Shown here one piece after another: positions 2,334 through 41,616 of a DNA stretch of 46,513 nt. Origin of the DNA: a virus (taxonomy: Duplodnaviria > Heunggongvirae > Uroviricota > Caudoviricetes); the IMG/VR virus record IMGVR_UViG_2718218361_000005, one strand, 5' to 3'. How positions within the stretch are numbered: position 1 is the stretch's first letter; each line of letters begins with the position of its first letter. The position numbers and the translations under genes are program-made. The notes beneath the pieces were generated by a model. That model saw only the letters and a program-made list of their open reading frames with translations, had not been told where the DNA came from and made no database searches.

Positions 2334-2918
2334 TTACTCCCTGACAGGGTTCGTAGGCCACTCAATATCAGGTGCAGTTGATGTATCAACACGGTTCAGC
2401 AACACCCGATACTTTTTCCAGGCTTCCAGCAATGAGGTTTCTTCCTCCGTTGCGATTTCCAGATCTACAGCATCCTGAAGTGGCGCAATATGCTCACTGG
2501 CTACCTGCATCAGGCTGTTTTTTGTTTCTTCCGCCTCCCGGATCCGGAACAGTTTTTCTGCTTCTGCATCTTTCACCCAGGCTGTGCCGTTCCACTTCTG
2601 ATATTCCCCTCCCGGCGATAACCAGGTAACATTTTCCGGTAACGGACCGAGTTCAGAAATAAATAACGCGTCGCCGGAAGCCACGTCATAAACCGTTTTA
2701 CCCCGATGATCTTCAACGAGATGCCACGATGCCTCATCACTGTTGAAAACAGCCACGAAGCCTGCCGGAATATCTGGCGGTGCAATATCGGTACTGTTTG
2801 CTGGCAGACCTGTATGAGGCGGAATATATGCATCACCTTCACCAATAAATTCATTAGTTCCGGCCAGCAGATTATAAATTTTTATGGTCCGTGGTTGTTC
2901 ACTCATTCTGAATGCCAT
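2334..2918 (-). CDS. tfa: Tail fiber assembly protein Tfa (194 aa)
   Basis: Length and sequence match lambda Tfa; start overlaps the stf stop. Confidence 0.9.
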
Positions 2919-6056: not shown

Positions 6057-6656
6057 TCAGAACTTATAACCGACACCCACGATGAACCCGTCAGTGCGCC
6101 AGTTGCCACTGCCGGAGCCTTCATAAGCGACATCAACGGCCACGGATTCGGTCGGGTTAAACTGCACGCCAGCTCCCCACGCCAGAGAGGTGTTACTGTG
6201 GCGAGCGTCATCACTTCCGGTCAGCACGTCGTGCGTTTTTCCCTTGTTGTCAGTTACGCGGAGATAATCCCCGGAAAAAGTCGACACACGGCTGTAAGCC
6301 ACGCCTGCCATCGCATACGCGCTGAACCATTCATTCACGCGTACAGACGGCCCCGCCATCACGCTGAACCAGCGGTTACGAACGGAGTCTTCATGCCAGC
6401 GGGTATCGCTGTAATGGGTCAGCTGGCGATTCTTGTCTCCTGCATAGCTGAACGACGTCACCATCCCCAGTGTGTCCGTAAACTCATAACGGTATTTCAC
6501 GTTAATCCCGTTCAGATCATCACTGCCGGGAACGTTGGTCCGGGCATGAAGATACCCCGCGCTCAGCGTGGACTGATGTTCAGACGCCCATGCAGGCGCA
6601 CAGGATACGGCCAGACAAATGGCTGCGGACAAAATGGCTGCACAAACTTTACGCAT
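6057..6656 (-). CDS. lom: Outer membrane protein Lom (Ail/OmpX family), signal peptide present
   Basis: 199-aa ORF, N-terminal signal peptide, beta-barrel-like C-terminus ending ...GVGYKF; position after J as in lambda. Confidence 0.9.
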   Translation of the reverse strand: MRKVCAAILSAAICLAVSCAPAWASEHQSTLSAGYLHARTNVPGSDDLNGINVKYRYEFTDTLGMVTSFSYAGDKNRQLTHYSDTRWHEDSVRNRWFSVMAGPSVRVNEWFSAYAMAGVAYSRVSTFSGDYLRVTDNKGKTHDVLTGSDDARHSNTSLAWGAGVQFNPTESVAVDVAYEGSGSGNWRTDGFIVGVGYKF

Positions 6657-6678
6657 AATTACCTCTCGCTTTTCTGCA

Positions 6679-6704
6679 ATAAAAAAGGCGTCATTTCTGA
6701 CGCC
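6679..6704 (-). terminator. Intrinsic terminator downstream of J
   Basis: Hairpin ggcgtca-tttc-tgacgcc with adjacent A-run on plus (T-run on minus), about 20 nt after the J stop. Confidence 0.6.
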
Positions 6705-6722
6705 CGTTCTGGGTTATAAAAT

Positions 6723-10124
<3,402 letters not shown>

Positions 10125-28763: not shown

Positions 28764-29846
28764 ATGAAAAAATTAACAGTGGCAATTTCTGCTGTAGCTG
28801 CATCAGTACTGATGGCGATGTCTGCTCAGGCAGCTGAAATTTATAATAAAGACAGTAACAAGCTGGATCTGTACGGGAAAGTTAATGCTAAGCACTACTT
28901 CTCCTCTAATGATGCAGATGATGGTGATACTACTTATGCCCGTCTTGGCTTCAAAGGTGAAACCCAAATCAACGATCAACTGACTGGTTTCGGTCAGTGG
29001 GAATATGAATTCAAAGGCAACCGCGCTGAATCTCAAGGTTCCTCCAAAGACAAAACCCGTCTTGCATTTGCAGGCCTGAAATTCGGTGACTACGGCTCAA
29101 TCGATTACGGCCGTAACTACGGTGTAGCATACGACATCGGTGCGTGGACTGACGTTCTGCCAGAATTCGGTGGCGATACCTGGACCCAAACAGATGTATT
29201 CATGACTGGTCGCACCACAGGTGTTGCAACTTATCGTAACAACGACTTCTTTGGTCTGGTTGATGGCCTGAACTTTGCAGCTCAGTATCAGGGCAAAAAT
29301 GACCGAAATGAAGTAACTGAAGCTAATGGCGATGGTTTCGGTTTCTCAACTACTTATGAGTATGAAGGATTCGGCGTGGGTGCAACCTATGCTAAATCTG
29401 ATCGCACTAATAATCAGGTTATCTACGGTAACAACGGTCTGAATGCTTCTGGTCAAAATGCTGAAGTATGGGCAGCTGGTCTGAAATATGATGCGAACAA
29501 CATCTATCTGGCCACCACCTATTCTGAAACCCAGAACATGACTGTTTTTGGTAATAACCATATTGCCAACAAAGCACAAAACTTCGAAGCTGTTGCACAA
29601 TATCAGTTCGACTTCGGCCTGCGTCCATCCGTTGCTTACCTGCATTCTAAAGGAAAAGACTTGGGTGTTTGGGGTGATCAGGACCTGGTTGAATATATTG
29701 ATGTAGGTGCAACCTATTACTTCAACAAAAATATGTCCACTTTTGTTGACTACAAAATCAACCTGATTGATAAGAGCGATTTCACGAAAGCATCTGGCGT
29801 TGCTACCGATGATATCGTTGCTGTAGGTATGGTTTACCAGTTCTAA
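28764..29846 (+). CDS. nmpC: General porin of the OmpC/OmpF/NmpC family (360 aa incl. signal peptide), apparently intact
   Basis: Signal peptide [23 protein letters not shown], porin beta-barrel ending ...VGMVYQF; located between Q and the lysis genes on the opposite strand, as nmpC in DLP12. Confidence 0.85.
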
Positions 29847-30503: not shown

Positions 30504-30626
30504 TCATACTCCTGCTCCTGTCAGGGTTTTGGCGTAATTCTTCAGTATTCGGTAATCGGTCAAAACAGAACCGGGGAAACGATATAAGCGCAGACGCCCC
30601 CAGCGGTGGCGAAGACGTTCTGCCAT
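30504..30626 (-). CDS. Small ORF YlcG-like (40 aa)
   Basis: Hand translation MAERLRHRWGRLRLYRFPGSVLTDYRILKNYAKTLTGAGV; sits between rusA and Q as ylcG does in DLP12. Confidence 0.5.
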   Translation of the reverse strand: MAERLRHRWGRLRLYRFPGSVLTDYRILKNYAKTLTGAGV

Positions 30627-30640
30627 ATAAAACTCAAACA

Positions 30641-31003
30641 TCATTCATTCCCCATTTCGGTGATGGTCAGTTCCAGCCTCCCACCTTTGGTAACAGGCAT
30701 CTTCACAACGCGGTAATCAACGACCTGAGCATCATCCAGCCAGAAACCTGCTTTAGTGAGTGCGTCAAAAGCGGCTTTTTGCAGATTATCCAGGTCACGG
30801 CGACGGCGATCCGGCATGTGGCACTCAATGCGGATTTTCACAGGCATAGCCAGGCCGATATCCAGCATTGCGTTTTTAATGATTCGGGCGACGTTATCGC
30901 GGTATGCCTGCCCCTCTGCGCTGACGTGCGTGCGCCCGCGATTATGGCGGTAATAGCGATTATTGCTCGGAGGCCAGGGTAATGTGATGCTGTAGGTATT
31001 CAC
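30641..31003 (-). CDS. rusA: Holliday junction resolvase RusA (120 aa)
   Basis: [18 protein letters not shown]...; matches RusA. Confidence 0.9.
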
Positions 31004-31290
31004 GCCTTAATAACCCCCTCTTTCAGCCAGATAACCTGTGTTCTCGCCATACCTTCCAGCGCGCATTCTTTTGCATATGCAGCATCGACAAAATGTGTGC
31101 GGCGGTCGATTTCGTCGTGGCAGGCAGAACATGCAATGGTGGCAATCAGGTCTGGCGGTTTGATACCGGTACCGCACAATCCAGCCAGCCGGATATGTGC
31201 CAGTACTGACGTTTCAGGATTGCCATTACATACGCCAGGGATTCTTACCTGGCATTCCCGACCACGCGCTGCTTTTCTCAAATCAGCCAT
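31000..31290 (-). CDS. ybcO: YbcO-like Cys-rich nin-region protein (96 aa)
   Basis: ATG at 31288-31290 ([26 protein letters not shown]...); several conserved Cys/His. Confidence 0.8.
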
Positions 31291-31453
31291 GATTCCTCCT
31301 TGCTGCCAGTCGCAACCATTTTTTATCAACCAGGCTGGCGGTATATCCGAGCAGTGTTGGTATTTCGGATGGTTTCAGCTCAGGCTTACGCTTACGACGA
31401 TTTGGTACTCTGTAGATGTGTCCGTTCATGACACGAATAAGCGGTGTAGCCAT
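31283..31453 (-). CDS. ninE: NinE (56 aa)
   Basis: Hand translation [56 protein letters not shown]; ATG overlaps the ybcN stop. Confidence 0.8.
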   Translation of the reverse strand: MATPLIRVMNGHIYRVPNRRKRKPELKPSEIPTLLGYTASLVDKKWLRLAARRNHG

Positions 31454-31908
31454 TACGCCTCCTGCTTGTCGCGCAGCAGCTGGAACTCGCAGCTCTGCGG
31501 AATAGTCAGGTGGCAGCCAATATTCACCGCCCAGGCTTCAACCTTACACAGGAAGACATACATCTCTCCGGTATCGAGATCGGAGGTATGACGTAATGAC
31601 TGAATGGTGGTGATTTCACCGGTTACGACATCAACCAGTTCTTTGGTTTCATAACCGAGATAAGTGTGTTTGAGAGCATCTTTTACCCAAGCTGGAGTGG
31701 CGAACGTTTTACCCCTGCTGATGAGGTATTCACTGATTTCGCTGTACCACATGTGGCTGAGTGCATTCTGGGAAAGACTGCGTCTCTCGCGCCATGGTTT
31801 AAGCACCATGCGAAAGCATTTGCCGTCCTCCAGATAAGGCTGGATCTGCCGACCGATAGCGGTGAAGTTACCGCGATGCAGTTTGATGCCATCTTGTGGG
31901 AAGTTCAC
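31453..31908 (-). CDS. ybcN: NinB/YbcN-like recombination protein (151 aa), GTG start
   Basis: GTG at 31906-31908 preceded by GGAGGTGA; product .[20 protein letters not shown]... Confidence 0.8.
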
Positions 31909-31946
31909 GCTTCACCTCCGCAGAGATCAAACGCTGGATGCAAGAT

Positions 31947-32036
31947 ATCGCAGGTGCATTTCTGCATCTGTGAATGGAGAAGAGAGTTTGGATTGTATGT
32001 GCGCATAAACGTCCCCGTTTAGCGCAGAAGTCACCG
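31947..32036. repeat. Left copy of a ~90-bp direct repeat (about 89% identical to 35605..35694), immediately upstream of ybcN
   Basis: Hand alignment: 80 of 90 positions identical, no indels; contains a conserved hairpin gcgc.taaacg-tc.c-cgttta-gcgc. Confidence 0.75.
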
Positions 32037-32145
32037 GAGTTGTTCAGGCTCCGATAGACTGGCCCCCTGAATCTCCAGACAACCAATATCACTTAAATAA
32101 GTGATAGTCTTAATACTAGTTTTTAGACTAGTCATTGGAGAGCAG

Positions 32146-32511
32146 ATGATTGATGTCTTAGGACCGGAGAAACGCAGACGGCGTACTACACAGGAAAAGA
32201 TCGCTATTGTTCAGCAGAGTTTTGAACCGGGAATGACGGTCTCCCTTGTTGCCCGGCAACACGGTGTGGCAGCCAGCCAGTTATTTCTCTGGCGCAAGCA
32301 ATACCAGGAGGGAAGTCTTACTGCTGTGGTCGCAGGAGAGCAGGTCGTTCCTGCCTCTGAACTTGCTGCTGCCATGAAGCAGATTAAAGAACTCCAGCGC
32401 CTGCTCGGCAAAAAAACGATGGAAAATGAACTCCTTAAAGAAGCCGTTGAATACGGGCGTGCAAAAAAGTGGATAGCGCACGCGCCCTTATTGCCCGGGG
32501 ATGGGGAGTAA
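32146..32511 (+). CDS. insC: IS2 transposase OrfA, InsC (121 aa)
   Basis: ATG at 32146 ([24 protein letters not shown]...), HTH, IS3-family orfA. Confidence 0.9.
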
Positions 32512-33374
32512 GCTTAGTCAGCCGTTGTCTCCGGGTGTCGCGTGCGCAGTTGCACGTAATTCTCAGACGAACCGATGACTGGAAAGATGGTCGCCGCAGC
32601 CGTCACTCAGATGATACGGATGTGCTTCTCCGTATACACCATGTTATCGGAGAGCTGCCCACGTATGGTTATCGTCGGGTATGGGCGCTGCTTCGCAGAC
32701 AGGCCGAACTTGATGGTATGCCTGCGATCAATGCCAAACGTATTTACCGGATCATGCGCCAGAATGCGCTGTTGCTTGAGCGAAAACCCGCTGTACCGCC
32801 ATCGAAACGGGCACATACCGGCAGAGTGGCTGTGAAAGAAAGTAATCAGCGATGGTGCTCTGACGGGTTCGAGTTCCGCTGTGATAACGGAGAAAAACTG
32901 CGAGTCACGTTCGCGCTGGACTGCTGTGACCGTGAGGCACTGCACTGGGCGGTCACTACGGGCGGCTTCAACAGTGAAACAGTACAGGACGTCATGCTGG
33001 GAGCGGTGGAACGCCGTTTCGGCAACGAGCTTCCGGCGTCTCCAGTAGAGTGGCTGACGGATAATGGTTCATGCTACCGGGCTAATGAAACACGGCAGTT
33101 TGCCCGGATGTTGGGGCTTGAACCGAAGAACACGGCGGTGCGGAGTCCGGAGAGTAACGGCATAGCAGAGAGCTTCGTGAAAACGATAAAGCGTGACTAC
33201 ATCAGTGTCATGCCCAAACCAGACGGGTTAACGGCAGCAAAGAACCTTGCAGAGGCATTCGAGCATTATAACGAATGGCATCCGCATAGTGCACTGGGTT
33301 ATCGCTCGCCACGGGAATATCTACGGCAGCAAGCCAGTAATGGGTTAAGTGATAACAGGTGTCTGGAAATATAG
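32469..33374 (+). CDS. insD: IS2 transposase OrfB, InsD (DDE integrase core); expressed as InsCD fusion by -1 frameshift
   Basis: 301-aa ORF overlapping the insC 3' end in the -1 frame; DDE transposase motifs. Confidence 0.9.
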
Positions 33375-33440
33375 GGGCAAATCCATCCGATGACATGATT
33401 ATGGCAAAATGATTATGTAAAATCAAAAGCCAAAAAACAA

Positions 33441-34370
33441 TTATGGTTTATTTTCTAGCTCTGATTTTTTGAAAGCTTCTATCAGACGATTAGCATCTTC
33501 TGTACCACCAGGAAGCACGTTTGATTTTTTAAGAATATACGGTGGGAACTTTGTTGTTAAATATTCATGCTTAAACCATCTACGAAACTCTGACAATGCA
33601 GAATCAGGATAGGCATTAATGATCTGAGGATTGGAACTTGCCTGAAGAAAATCTTCAGGGTAATAATGCTCACAGTCTACTCTTTCTCCAAATTCTGTTG
33701 CTAACCCCTTTGCTTTCCAGTGACGCGCCCAGCAAGAACCAACACTGCCATCAGGTACGGTATGCTGATTAATCGCTAATCCAGCATTGATGAGATCTAC
33801 CATCATACCTGCAATTTCATTAAATATAATGAAATACCCATCAGGTATGGTTCCCTTATCTTTTAATAAAGATACTCTGTCATGGTAATGCCTCCACGGG
33901 TCCTCCGGTTGATATTTTAGCGCCTCGTATATAAATGTCTTGAGGCCTTTTTTAGCAAGCTCTCTGTAAGATCTAATTGCAGTCTCACTTTCTGCTTGTT
34001 TTGCTTCAAAGGCATAGTATTCAAGTATAGCCATGCATACAACATCTGGATAAGCATGGTACTCAACACCATTTCGAATTATTGGTATATAAAGTTTTTC
34101 ATCTGTAAAACCTTCATTAAGAAGATATGTACCAATAAAAGTCATTCTTCCTTTTTTGAAAATACCGTTCTCAACAGATTGAGCCCACTCATCGGTAATT
34201 TCCTTGATTCGCAAACGCTGAACACCACAAACATTTGCCAACCCATTCTGAGTAAGGTACGGAATTCCGTTATCGAGTACCCCCATTTCTATACCGTTAA
34301 TGACAGCCTCTTGCTTAACATCTAAGTCTAAAGGTATGGATCTGAGGGAGGTAGTTCTCTGTTGTGCCAT
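33441..34370 (-). CDS. Hypothetical 309-aa protein with N-terminal KilA-N/Bro-N-like segment; AT-rich accessory gene
   Basis: ATG at 34368-34370 preceded by AGGA (track ORF starts at an upstream TTG); N-terminal segment AVINGIEMGVLDNGIPYLTQNGLANVCGV resembles the KilA-N/Bro-N DNA-binding pattern; no function assigned. Confidence 0.6.
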   Translation of the reverse strand: MAQQRTTSLRSIPLDLDVKQEAVINGIEMGVLDNGIPYLTQNGLANVCGVQRLRIKEITDEWAQSVENGIFKKGRMTFIGTYLLNEGFTDEKLYIPIIRNGVEYHAYPDVVCMAILEYYAFEAKQAESETAIRSYRELAKKGLKTFIYEALKYQPEDPWRHYHDRVSLLKDKGTIPDGYFIIFNEIAGMMVDLINAGLAINQHTVPDGSVGSCWARHWKAKGLATEFGERVDCEHYYPEDFLQASSNPQIINAYPDSALSEFRRWFKHEYLTTKFPPYILKKSNVLPGGTEDANRLIEAFKKSELENKP

Positions 34371-34574: not shown

Positions 34575-35177
34575 CTAACAGATTTGACGCAAATACGGCA
34601 ATACTCGACCCCACTTATCATCCTGCCACGGCTGAATTTTTATATGTGCCGTTTTTCTGGCAAGGATTTCGCGCGCCTTATGTAGTATCTGGGGATATTC
34701 TTGCTCGATAGAAGTAAAGCGACCGGCTTCGCGGTGCTCCGCAACCTGAAGAAGTGGAGTAACGTTCTGGCAGGCGGTTAACATCGTATCACTTGCTCGC
34801 CATAACCAAGCAAGTGTGCAAAGTTCGTTATCAGTGAATTGTTTTGTGATCGGGGATTGTTGAACTTCTCGATCGAGAATATCCAGAACCCAGCGGCGGA
34901 ACTCTTTGGCTACAGGAGTTCGTGCAAACATGGCGATCAAATGGGCTCCGCGAAGGCTAAATACTCGAGACTCCTGCATTCCACGAGGGGTGGTCACTTT
35001 GACCACCCTTGTCATCATATCTGTAAATTCATCTGAGTGACGAGAGTAAATGCGCTGAACTGCTTTATCGTCCGCATATTCCAGAGCTAAACCAACTTCA
35101 GTGGCAGTAAGCCAAATTCTGTTATTGTGGCAAATTGGGGTAAACGTCGTTTTGTGGAATGCTAATTGAGTAGTCAT
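34575..35177 (-). CDS. Bro-N domain protein, antirepressor-like (200 aa)
   Basis: ATG preceded by GAGGTGA; N-terminus FTPICHNNRIWLTATEVGLALEY...RVFSLRGAHLIAMFARTPVAKEFRRWVLDIL fits the Bro-N pattern. Confidence 0.6.
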   Translation of the reverse strand: MTTQLAFHKTTFTPICHNNRIWLTATEVGLALEYADDKAVQRIYSRHSDEFTDMMTRVVKVTTPRGMQESRVFSLRGAHLIAMFARTPVAKEFRRWVLDILDREVQQSPITKQFTDNELCTLAWLWRASDTMLTACQNVTPLLQVAEHREAGRFTSIEQEYPQILHKAREILARKTAHIKIQPWQDDKWGRVLPYLRQIC

Positions 35178-35331
35178 AGTATCACCTCATCAGGTTAACC
35201 ATCACCACCAACGACGCCAATCGACTGGTGGTGAACTGTGCAAGGTTGGCGTAACCGGCTACTCAAACCCGGCGCTCCCGAAGAAGCCCTCACACAGCCC
35301 ACCATAATTTGGGCGTAGCCGTGCTTAGCGC

Positions 35332-35354
35332 ATAAAAAAACCGCTTAACGCGGT
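35332..35354 (-). terminator. Intrinsic terminator downstream of the small hydrophobic ORF
   Basis: Minus-strand hairpin accgc-gttaa-gcggt followed by a T7 run. Confidence 0.6.
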
Positions 35355-35440
35355 ATGCGTTGAGTAGTATTCCGGGACGCCAATCCCGTGTGCCGATTTT
35401 GCGGCAACGCACAGAATATAGCGCCGGATAAATAATGTCG

Positions 35441-35536: not shown

Positions 35537-35604
35537 ATCACCTTTAGCCGCCAGACAAACAGAGACTCCCTGTTCTTGGCTGCCAAAAACACCGAATGCA
35601 AAAA

Positions 35605-35694
35605 ATCGCAGGTGTATTTCTGCATCTGTGGAGGGAGAATAGGATTTAGATTGTATGTGCGTATAAACGTCACCGTTTAGCGCAGAAGTTACCG
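35605..35694. repeat. Right copy of the ~90-bp direct repeat (see 31947..32036)
   Basis: Hand alignment with 31947..32036. Confidence 0.75.
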
Positions 35695-37074: not shown

Positions 37075-37220
37075 AACCCTATCTCCTTGGATTCAAAGAA
37101 CTAAATATTATCAAGTCTCTTGCCACTAGAAAACCCACTTTACTACCAAACTCTGACGGCATTCCTGAAAATTCGGTTCATACTCACTTGCCCCGCCCTA
37201 TCATCCTGAGTAGCTAACCG

Positions 37221-37394
37221 TTAAACAAACGTTCGCCAGACCTTACCATCAATGACTAAGATTCCTGCCCGCGCCATTTTAGCCGCAGCCTGATTTATGC
37301 TGGTTACTGTCACACCTGTTACCGCAGCAACGTCCTGCGCACAGAAGTTCTTATGAGTCCCCAGGTAATGAATAATTGCCTCTTTGCCCGTCAT
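37221..37394 (-). CDS. ren: Ren-like protein, C-terminally shortened (57 aa versus ~96 aa in lambda)
   Basis: Hand translation MTGKEAIIHYLGTHKNFCAQDVAAVTGVTVTSINQAAAKMARAGILVIDGKVWRTFV; start overlaps the P stop as in lambda; AT-rich sequence follows the stop. Confidence 0.7.
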   Translation of the reverse strand: MTGKEAIIHYLGTHKNFCAQDVAAVTGVTVTSINQAAAKMARAGILVIDGKVWRTFV

Positions 37395-40738: not shown

Positions 40739-40859
40739 TACCAATTAAAAATTATCAACTGGGCATTGTGCTCATTCAGTAAAGAACTAATTCCTATCTT
40801 TGCTCTAGGTAGTAATATTAAGCCACCGCAATAATATCTTTACCTAACGGCGTAAGAAT

Positions 40860-40886
40860 CCCGGTCACCGTGCCGGGTTTTCTTTT
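40860..40886 (+). terminator. Intrinsic terminator downstream of the repressor gene
   Basis: Hairpin cccgg-tcaccgtg-ccggg followed by ttttctttt. Confidence 0.55.
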
Positions 40887-40998
40887 GCCCTCCCCTCATC
40901 ACACACACCGTTAAAAAAACCACCATAACCTCGCTTCAGTTATCGCTATGCGATTCAAGTCACAAAATAAATCCATCCTAAATACAACCAGTTATATC

Positions 40999-41056
40999 TA
41001 AAACAACCAATAAAACAACTTTTGTTGTTGACGGTAAAACAACTATAGTTTTAAAT
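40999..41056 (+). promoter_or_regulatory. Leftward operator/promoter region (OL/pL-like) driving the gam-bet-exo operon
   Basis: Three AAAACAAC half-site-containing elements, palindrome ACAACTTTTGTTGT, candidate promoter TTGACG-N17-TTAAAT overlapping the 17-bp element shared with OR. Confidence 0.55.
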
Positions 41057-41616
41057 AAGTTCGTCGCAACAACACAACGATACGGCAACCACCTGATTCA
41101 CCGTTGCGATGACCGCTTAGATCCGCAGTTTGAATTTCAGCAGGTTTCGGGGAGTGCGAGGGGTGAAACGGACGCGTGAACGTCGGTGTGACCAGCTGAA
41201 ATCAACTCAACATTTCATACCTTAGTCGCTTCAACGAGGCGGCTTAGTTATGACAACCGGCGGCCATCCACCGCCTGAATACGCGCAGAAGTCTCTATAT
41301 GTTCAGCAGCCCAGCTTACGGGCAGGAGTTTTTATGGTTCATCAACATTACGGAACGCAGACCGTTAATCGCGGCGCGGTCATGCCAGGAATGCTGGTCA
41401 AACACAAAGATGGTACCTAGACTGCATCAGCTAATTTACGCGGACAGCTTTATCTGCATCGCGGCATCGAGCGCACTTATACCCGTGATTTGCTCGTGGA
41501 AGTTTTTCTCGACGGACGCGGTAACGGCCTGAATCACTAACCCCCCTTTCCTGTTTTCCTAATCAGCCTGGCATTTCGCGGGCGCTATTTTCACAGCCAT
41601 TTTCAGGAGTTCAGCC

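Follow-up and report, generated by a model that had tools for sequence, protein, structure and literature searches.

A complete IS2-group element in the ylcH leader of a nearly complete lambda-like argU/DLP12 prophage, with a probable negative effect on the ybcN-to-Q block

Known cases of IS2 placed upstream of other genes include both silencing and activation. At galEP3, IS2 serves as a cassette of Rho-dependent terminators (PMC3737525). In DLP12, IS2 or IS10 inserted upstream of the normally quiescent rusA gene activates it (PMC1636454; PMC10956419), so the sign of the IS effect depends on orientation and context. The element itself is well described: its left (IRL) and right (IRR) terminal inverted repeats measure 42 and 41 bp, an A6G motif serves for frameshifting, the -35 half of its junction promoter, Pjunc, faces outward, and transposition proceeds via a figure-of-eight and a minicircle intermediate (PMC3299598). 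Here, an IS2 copy was analyzed in a 46,513-nt stretch of viral DNA (IMG/VR record IMGVR_UViG_2718218361_000005), hereafter the window.

The window is identical to the chromosome of E. coli H14 over the 34,759 nt compared and, according to the H14 annotation, it holds a lambda-like prophage that is nearly complete and occupies the argU/DLP12 locus. The integrase gene lies beside tRNA-Arg (argU), the gene order is int-xis-exo/bet/gam-cI-cro-O-P-nin-Q-lysis-head-tail, and the prophage has its head, tail, lysis, replication and immunity genes. The lesions consist of the single IS and of point lesions in kil and ren, and the nmpC/ompC-like porin gene is intact. The original prediction, made from the letters of the sequence, had placed the IS in the rightward early region (the minus strand here), antisense to it, after O/P and before ybcN and Q; strands and gene order agree with this placement. 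Indeed, the phage genes flanking the IS are all on the minus strand, the transposase is on the plus strand and is directed away from Q, and the block downstream in the phage direction reads ylcH-ybcN-ninE-ybcO-rusA-ylcG-quuD (Q) (Table 1). The distances also stand, with 55 nt (33386-33440) between the IS end and the 309-aa gene stop, as predicted, and 146 nt (31909-32054) to the start of ybcN, for a predicted value of about 140 bp. No coding gene is broken by the IS, whose effect would be regulatory.

Table 1. Coordinates of the IS2-group element, of the interrupted leader and of the neighboring prophage genes in the window.
Feature	Position	Strand	Basis
Left 5-bp target-site duplication, TCCGA	32050..32054		Direct sequence
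IS2-group insertion sequence (IS3 family), divergent isoform, 1331 bp	32055..33385	+	Direct sequence reading; 100% identity to S21/H14 copies
42-bp imperfect terminal inverted repeat on the left (IRL), ylcH/ybcN side	32055..32096	+	Arms detected by repeat search
orfA (InsC), 121 aa, HTH_Tnp_1	32146..32511	+	Open frame; Pfam
A6G slippery motif near the orfA end, for -1 frameshift to OrfAB transposase	32463..32469	+	Sequence
orfB (InsD), 301 aa, HTH_21 and rve integrase core	32469..33374	+	Open frame; Pfam
41-bp imperfect terminal inverted repeat on the right (IRR), bstA-homologue side	33345..33385	+	Arms detected by repeat search
Right 5-bp target-site duplication, TCCGA	33386..33390		Direct sequence
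Conserved putative sigma-70 promoter, TTGATT-17-CATAAT, TG before -10	33398..33426	-	Promoter scan, 9/12 plus TG
Distal part of split inverted repeat, TCGGAGCCTGAACAACTCCGGTGAC	32030..32054	-	Phage 82 annotation, alignment, conservation
309-aa BstA abortive-infection defence homologue, directly upstream of IS in phage direction	33441..34370	-	PADLOC
33-aa ylcH-like ORF (phage 82 orf33), 48 nt past the IS as the first downstream ORF	31905..32006	-	Annotation/phage 82 record
ybcN, NinB-like, 151 aa	31453..31908	-	ORF, annotation, Pfam
ninE, upstream of rusA	31283..31453	-	Annotation
ybcO, upstream of rusA	31000..31290	-	Annotation
rusA, Holliday-junction resolvase	30641..31003	-	ORF, annotation
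ylcG, downstream of rusA	30504..30644	-	Annotation
quuD, Q-family late antiterminator, 127 aa	30035..30418	-	Annotation; Pfam Phage_antitermQ, E 3.5e-53

The 309-aa product matched the PADLOC BstA profile over positions 5-291 of 292 (E 3.6e-121), while a Pfam search of this protein returned zero matches; some RefSeq records name it “BstA C-terminal domain-containing protein”. An effect of the IS on BstA self-immunity was considered and is unlikely, the insertion lying 55 nt past the 3' end of the gene; the aba element sits at the 5' start of bstA (PMC8585504).

The element is indeed an IS2-group insertion sequence with its structure intact. Its first bases, read directly, are TAGACTGGCCCCC and its last bases GGGGCAAATCCA, and these ends, together with the open frames and the Pfam domains of their products (HTH_Tnp_1 in OrfA, E 3.2e-19; HTH_21, rve, E 2.1e-19, and rve_3, E 2.8e-18, in OrfB), confirm the complete 1331-bp IS2 with intact InsC/InsD that had been predicted. 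orfA and orfB overlap in 0/-1 phase, and at the same site the RefSeq annotation of H14 carries a joined “programmed frameshift” IS3-family transposase. Compared with K-12 IS2A, 59 substitutions and zero indels were counted over 1331 bp, giving 95.57% identity. IS positions 1-87, IRL included, do not differ from K-12, IRR differs by one substitution (IS position 1305), and the proteins differ by 1 residue in OrfA (InsC1) and 10 in OrfB (InsD1). The ISfinder convention for isoforms is roughly at least 95% nucleotide identity, and the element falls right at this threshold; in RefSeq it goes under “IS3 family transposase” rather than “IS2 family”. The copies of E. coli S21 and H14 match it at 1331 of 1331 bp and plasmid copies are 99.9% identical. 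Among 7746 matching records, 362 have a copy at least 99% identical and 6602 fall in the 95-99% band, where K-12-type copies are found. These matches indicate that the divergent isoform also circulates on large conjugative plasmids, and it is mobile, as shown by near-identical copies at numerous sites on plasmids and chromosomes.

The perfect 5-bp target duplication (TCCGA) was likewise verified, since copies flank both IS ends and uninterrupted relatives carry one. The comparison with strains lacking the insertion, which had been proposed as a check, was run with an artificial empty site obtained by removing the IS and one TCCGA. This site gave a one-piece, end-to-end match in 104 complete E. 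coli genomes. In strain 2016C-3878, one TCCGA is present and its flanks are identical. Since uninterrupted sites of related E. coli prophages have a single TCCGA, the insertion is a simple transposition. This one event, presumably by the copy-out/paste-in minicircle route that is the standard pathway of the IS3 family, left the 5-bp duplication. Natural IS2 insertions were also found in the DLP12-type prophages of the EC21Z-078 clade, DXMF6-3R, EV36, P13-6, EC05, STEC306-308, TOK-001, GPEC1405 and CH4804, that of TOK-001 being known from its search match alone. Each of the nine copies whose ends were read is 1331 bp long with a perfect 5-bp duplication. The original prediction had taken the perfect duplication as a sign of recent insertion, an argument that fails here: perfect duplications in all nine independent insertions examined say little on age. 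A recent insertion is better supported by the rarity of the window junction, found in 2 of 5426 genomes (H14 and S21), both 100% identical to the window over the 14-kb stretch compared. These other insertions occupy other positions in both orientations, mostly involve K-12-type IS2, and none shares the window junction; two of them lie in the same ylcH leader. As a separate observation, which does not depend on the window insertion, the conserved promoter-hairpin leader of ylcH is hit repeatedly by IS2.

In the window, the IS lies in this short leader between the bstA-like gene and the ylcH block, a few bases downstream of the putative promoter. The latter is homologous to the “putative” -35/-10 signals upstream of orf33/ylcH in the phage 82 record (X92588.1), and both hexamers persist in five different upstream contexts, as does an inverted repeat labeled “possible regulator-binding site” in the same record. 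Alignment to phage 82 places the IS inside the left of the two 10-bp arms, the remainder of the split repeat being GTCA plus the second TCGGA (33386-33394). For the leader without the IS, the predicted folding energy is -30.1 kcal/mol (z -5.7). The putative promoter, formerly directed into ylcH, is now directed into IRR. Because the IS stands between it and ylcH, the ybcN-Q block is cut off from this proximal promoter. In K-12, rusA is described as normally quiescent, so the contribution of the proximal promoter may be small.

By gene order and strands, the IS is located between the promoter or promoters and ybcN...Q, and the genes on either side of it would share one transcript. Before reaching Q, any transcript, whether from pR or from the proximal promoter, would have to run through the 1.3 kb of IS2 in antisense. 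In the phage direction, the IS2 RNA has a C/G ratio of 1.24 (sense strand, 0.81), and 54 of its 126 78-nt segments reach a C/G of at least 1.3, against 1 on the sense strand. Stop codons occur in all three frames and there is no long open frame. A C-rich antisense RNA with stops in three frames is predicted to be a good Rho substrate. From this strand composition and the older literature, we infer that the element stands in the classical polar orientation. Rho termination would then take place within the C-rich, stop-laden RNA and, in line with the original prediction, expression of ybcN...Q, hence of the late genes, is probably reduced or delayed by the IS; precise excision would reverse the effect.

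This effect would be lost if polymerases read through the element. A Nus complex assembled at a boxA, or an unrecognised device, would then allow Q to be made and leave the prophage fully inducible, which we consider rather unlikely. A perfect 13-nt consensus boxA (CGCTCTTTAACAA), the only exact match in the window, lies 13 nt after cro and is kept in relatives and in the viable phage IdasGreatGrand. Two studies describe rrn-type Nus/boxA complexes as countering Rho-dependent termination (PMC4807359, PMC5725501), and the perfect boxA after cro makes Nus-dependent read-through of IS2 possible. Besides, pR transcripts must already cross an intrinsic-terminator-like site at isrK (35340-35354, minus strand) in the uninterrupted phage, suggesting some read-through mechanism, and viable phages tolerate IS elements, PhiR11_1 carrying IS2 and HK022 carrying IS903. 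However, of the N-type early antitermination system (an N gene, and nutL/nutR with boxA and boxB), only the boxA after cro was found. The interval from cI to kil contained zero leftward-strand ORFs of at least 35 aa, and no boxB hairpin was seen in the sequence next to boxA. Put RNAs of the HK022 type were discarded as candidates, with no similarity to the HK022 put-site region and no Rfam family even at a relaxed threshold. In addition, the IS of PhiR11_1 sits close to an end of the genome instead of separating the early genes from Q, and polymerase starting at the proximal promoter, downstream of boxA, would escape modification if Q is driven mainly from there. Independently of the window insertion, there is a family of viable lambda-like phages that have a perfect boxA and no N gene.

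The opposite outcome would be activation as in rus-1, in which a promoter supplied or created by IS2 switches on ybcN-ninE-ybcO-rusA, and possibly also Q, while the lysogen is repressed, so that the host gains additional RusA resolvase. It would be in line with the activation of rusA in DLP12 cited above and with the finding that, in other E. coli, the roughly 0.6 kb upstream of ybcN has received IS2 independently at least seven times. It is nevertheless very improbable here. Among these nearby insertions, five of seven run opposite to the one in the window, where IRL is on the ybcN side and the transposase is directed away. The only known outward-facing promoter element of IS2, the -35 half of Pjunc, would be placed in IRR and face away from ybcN. 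The promoter scan detected no minus-strand promoter of at least 9/12 between 33183 and 30988, the best relaxed match for an outward promoter at IRL reached an unconvincing 8/12, and constitutive Q from an intact prophage is expected to be harmful. A hybrid promoter at IRR was also sought, and nothing convincing emerged from the scans. The notion that only antisense IS2 is tolerated upstream of Q was ruled out by five independent sense insertions just upstream of ybcN; at least some sense-oriented insertions upstream of ybcN are in defective prophages. As for an assembly artefact, in which an IS2 copy would have been misplaced into the prophage, this origin is hardly conceivable, although IS elements often cause misassembly. 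H14 and S21 are separately deposited chromosomes, and neither holds an IS2 copy other than this element that could be confused with it. The ends of the element are also exact and lie between two perfect copies of a 5-bp sequence that occurs once in relatives.

Taken together, the reading that we favor, and consider likely, is that of an intact IS2-group element that entered the ylcH leader by one simple transposition and probably lowers or delays ybcN...Q expression, as an ordinary case of IS-mediated prophage decay. Both the element and the phenomenon are already known, and such decay is routine. Hence, the insertion has little significance beyond the strain, where it may help explain phage release, or its absence, from the H14/S21 lysogen, and it offers a clean example of an IS in the regulatory leader of a prophage nin/Q block. 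A more ambitious proposal, which we regard as doubtful, is that the ylcH/ybcN leader, with its conserved TTGATT-N6-AATCAA palindrome over the -35, its promoter and its hairpin, is the control point for Q in N-less lambdoid phages and that IS2 insertions are selected there. By disconnecting rusA-Q-lysis, antisense copies such as that of the window would ground the prophage and still preserve useful cargo like BstA and the porin, and sense copies would rewire the block as in rus-1. If this were true, the window would represent one case of convergent IS-mediated domestication targeting a specific regulatory node rather than a random insertion.

When set against the described systems, the element shares its length, IRL, orfA/orfB layout, A6G motif, rve domain and 5-bp duplication with K-12 IS2 (IS2A, insC1/insD1). 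With galEP3 (gal::IS2), it has in common the location of IS2 between a promoter and downstream genes; the Rho-dependent terminators of galEP3 shut distal expression (PMC3737525), whereas the target in the window is a phage nin/Q block, for which the polar effect is proposed by analogy. The rus-1 (IS2) and rus-2 (IS10) insertions in K-12 DLP12 share the locus type, the ybcN-ninE-ybcO-rusA block and an IS upstream of rusA (PMC1636454), the IS family being shared as well; unlike those insertions, which activate rusA, the window IS2 has IRL proximal to the block and is without a predicted outward promoter. Finally, the cryptic DLP12 of K-12 has the same argU site, intD, a homologous nin-Q-lysis region and IS-driven decay, yet it carries IS3 in renD and IS5 in nmpC, while the prophage of the window is nearly complete and bears a single IS.

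Reading of the sequence and its Pfam domains confirmed the original prediction of a complete 1331-bp IS2 with intact frames, which is flanked at both ends by a perfect 5-bp TCCGA duplication. Its anatomy agrees with the description of IS2 by Lewis et al. (2012; PMC3299598), who reported terminal inverted repeats of 41 bp on the right (IRR) and 42 bp on the left (IRL), a frameshift window with an A6G motif, and a minicircle intermediate. Compared with K-12 IS2A, 59 substitutions and no indels were counted (95.57% identity), with one residue changed in OrfA and ten in OrfB; IRL is identical and IRR carries one change. Because of this divergence, and because a copy at least 99% identical was present in just 362 of the 7746 matching records, the majority falling in the 95–99% band, the element is, by sequence comparison, a divergent isoform of the IS2 group. 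Hence, the RefSeq label of the transposase, “IS3 family transposase” and not “IS2 family,” is fitting.

The window spans appY to intD and contains a lambda-like prophage integrated at argU/DLP12, for which the K-12 cryptic prophage DLP12 was used as comparison. In the phage rightward direction (- strand), cro (YdaS-like) is followed by a YdaT-domain protein in the cII position, O, P, a ren pseudogene, a VasI-like gene, a small membrane protein, the isrK and C4 RNAs with a Bro-N/P22AR antirepressor, a 309-aa gene, IS2, a ylcH-like ORF of 33 aa, ybcN, ninE, ybcO, rusA, ylcG, quuD (Q, the late-gene antiterminator), a porin gene on the opposite strand, then the lysis, head and tail genes. This order and the strands match the predicted placement of IS2, antisense in the rightward early region and between the replication genes and Q. 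The predicted distances also hold, since the 309-aa gene ends 55 nt from the element and ybcN begins 146 nt from it (about 140 bp had been proposed); the ylcH-like ORF starts just 48 nt away. The porin gene is intact, whereas in K-12 DLP12 it is broken by IS5. Within the prophage proper, lesions were otherwise flagged in accessory genes only, kil and ren, suggesting mild decay of a prophage that is complete in other respects; further pseudogenes are a tail-fibre-assembly fragment and a frameshifted methyltransferase near appY. Viable phages carry the same immunity and replication module with 95–98% identity.

Features of the prophage, with coordinates on the window
Feature	Coordinates	Strand	Evidence or remark
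IS2-group element, 1331 bp	32055-33385		starts TAGACTGGCCCCC, ends GGGGCAAATCCA; direct sequence reading
Target duplication TCCGA	32050-32054 and 33386-33390		directly outside both ends; direct sequence reading
orfA, 121 aa, open	32146-32511	+	HTH_Tnp_1 (Pfam)
orfB, 301 aa, open	32469-33374	+	HTH_21, rve, rve_3 (Pfam)
A6G motif	32463-32469		orfA/orfB overlap in 0/-1 arrangement
Putative promoter -35/-10	33426-33398	-	alignment to phage 82
Palindrome TTGATT-N6-AATCAA	33398-33430	-	over -35 and spacer of the putative ylcH promoter
bstA homologue, 309 aa, full-length	33441-34370	-	PADLOC, E 3.6e-121
Bro-N/P22AR_C antirepressor gene	34575-35177		preceded by isrK/C4
isrK and C4 antisense RNA, tandem	35224-35406	-	Rfam, 60.7 and 72.7 bits
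Direct repeat, 108 nt, 86% identity	31929-32036 and 35587-35694		duplicates ylcH-like ORF and leader
boxA, perfect consensus, CGCTCTTTAACAA	39688-39700	-	13 nt past cro stop
ren, frameshifted	~37100-37394		
kil nonsense, TGG-to-TAG (W57stop)	41418-41420		versus Kil of viable phage IdasGreatGrand
nmpC/ompC-like porin gene, intact	28764-29846	+	between Q and lysis genes; antisense to late transcription
IS009 match, strong	2377-2575	-	Rfam, 229.5 bits; tail-fibre-assembly region

The isrK-C4-antirepressor set resembles a control module of the P1 immI or Gifsy-1 IsrK kind, lying within the nin region. Together with bstA, it is flanked by the two copies of the 108-nt repeat, each preceded by a related inverted repeat, as if recombination at the ylcH leader had brought in the whole module; both leader copies are present in IdasGreatGrand too. 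The 309-aa BstA homologue gave no Pfam match. BstA, a prophage protein, acts in defence by abortive infection. The aba element, which confers self-immunity, sits at the 5′ start of bstA (PMC8585504), and since IS2 lies 3′ of the homologue, aba is predicted to be untouched.

At the sequence level, the arrival of IS2 is a simple insertion. An “empty site” query of 1600 nt, made in silico by deleting the element and one TCCGA, aligned in one piece and along its full length to 104 complete E. coli genomes, with 98.2% identity among the matches listed, and strain 2016C-3878 carries a single TCCGA with flanks identical to those of the window. Of 5426 complete genomes, only two had the occupied junction, those of E. 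coli strains H14 and S21, to which the window is 100% identical over 14 kb, with no mismatch across the 34,759 nt compared with H14. The perfect duplication had been taken as a sign of recent insertion. This does not hold, as all nine IS2 copies whose ends were read, the window’s included, measure 1331 bp and have perfect 5-bp duplications, making this feature uninformative on age; rarity and strain-to-strain identity are better evidence of recency. Among the nearest other copies (99.9%), several lie on conjugative plasmids of ~100–117 kb, and a copy differing by a single base, on plasmid A of strain D5, adjoins an autotransporter gene. As neither the H14 nor the S21 chromosome has a further IS2 and copies one base different lie on conjugative plasmids, a plasmid origin is likely, and the 99.9% plasmid copies would fit a recent arrival.

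In the GenBank record of phage 82 (X92588.1; rusA work, Mahdi et al., 1996), three features are annotated upstream of orf33 (ylcH) and orf151 (ybcN), i.e., a putative -35 (TTGATT), a putative -10 (CATAAT) and a “possible regulator-binding site,” GTCACCGGAG-N9-CTCCGGTGAC. The window flanks of IS2 align to these features, and an independent promoter scan gave the same promoter site (9/12 matches, plus a TG preceding the -10). IS2 interrupts the inverted repeat within its left arm, the duplication (TCGGA on the phage strand) lying a few bases past the predicted transcription start. The hexamers, repeat stem and downstream leader were all conserved among five differing upstream contexts (K-12/phage 82; bstA type; IdasGreatGrand/DXMF6-3R; EC21Z; GPEC1405/CH4804); the loop was variable, and a C/T change in one arm would still allow G-U pairing in the RNA. 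Without the insertion, the leader is predicted to fold into two hairpins (-30.1 kcal/mol, z -5.7), and the target is a sharp composition boundary, with a G+C of 49% on the ybcN side versus 29% on the bstA side. The palindrome over the -35, found at seven homologous loci and kept in the five otherwise unlike contexts, looks like a candidate operator for some regulator.

IS2 places 1331 bp, read antisense, between the ylcH to quuD genes and both the early rightward promoter pR and the putative proximal promoter just upstream of ylcH. Its antisense RNA would be a good Rho substrate, given a C/G of 1.24, 54 of 126 windows of 78 nt at 1.3 or more, and stops in all three frames; on the sense strand, C/G is 0.81 and a single window reaches that level. 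In the strongly polar “orientation I” of IS2, transcription presumably enters at IRR and runs antisense to the transposase, as it would in the window. Adhya, Gottesman and de Crombrugghe are said to have reported in 1974 that lambda N suppresses IS polarity. No N gene was found between cI and kil, and promoter scans gave no convincing outward promoter facing ybcN. Besides, the galEP3 reporter relies on IS2 as the classic Rho-dependent terminator cassette (PMC3737525). Given the Rho-prone antisense RNA, this precedent, and the failure to find N, a put-like RNA or an outward promoter, a reduced or delayed expression of Q and of the late genes appears the most likely consequence, with moderate confidence. 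The expected polarity on Q is reasonable, and somewhat strengthened by IS2 striking the putative promoter and hairpin.

Uncertainty over a reduced Q expression comes from boxA, from a terminator-like site at isrK and from activating insertions near rusA. The boxA is the sole exact match in the window (chance expectation far below one) and is kept after cro in relatives and in IdasGreatGrand, a viable phage with the same arrangement of boxA without N. No boxB hairpin was seen beside it, no N-like ORF in the cI-kil gap (40739-41249), and no put-like RNA, either by similarity to the HK022 put region or in Rfam. Nus/boxA complexes are reported to counter Rho-dependent termination (PMC4807359; PMC5725501). 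The isrK site already lies in the path of pR transcripts in the uninterrupted phage, and since these must pass it, some read-through device may be present. Moreover, the quiescent rusA gene of DLP12 is documented to become active when IS2 or IS10 is inserted upstream of it (PMC1636454; PMC10956419). An IS alone does not render a phage defective, and position matters, since the viable lambdoid phages HK022 and PhiR11_1 carry IS903 (6602-7658) and, near a genome end, IS2 (643-1973), respectively.

Chimeric junction searches in the 5426 genomes recovered other IS2 insertions in DLP12-type prophages. Relative to the copy in the ylcH leader of the window, H14 and S21, the orientation is the same within ylcH (EC21Z-078 clade), in the ybcK/ant spacer (GPEC1405) and in Rz (CH4804), and opposite at the start of ylcH (DXMF6-3R), in ybcM (EV36 lineage, P13-6 and EC05) and in the bstA homologue, itself split (STEC306-308). 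At least seven independent insertions lie at most ~0.6 kb upstream of ybcN (two antisense and five sense lineages); the control rusA-ybcO-ninE stretch gave one insertion in one orientation (TOK-001, a search match only) and zero in the other. This difference of about seven events versus one, from small counts uncorrected for shared descent, hints at a preferred or selected IS2 target. The original description of the locus was accurate. The element and its mechanism were already known and the transposase already marked by RefSeq; IS entry into prophages is commonplace, and the insertion is not unusual, given the other independent IS2 insertions found in DLP12-type prophages.
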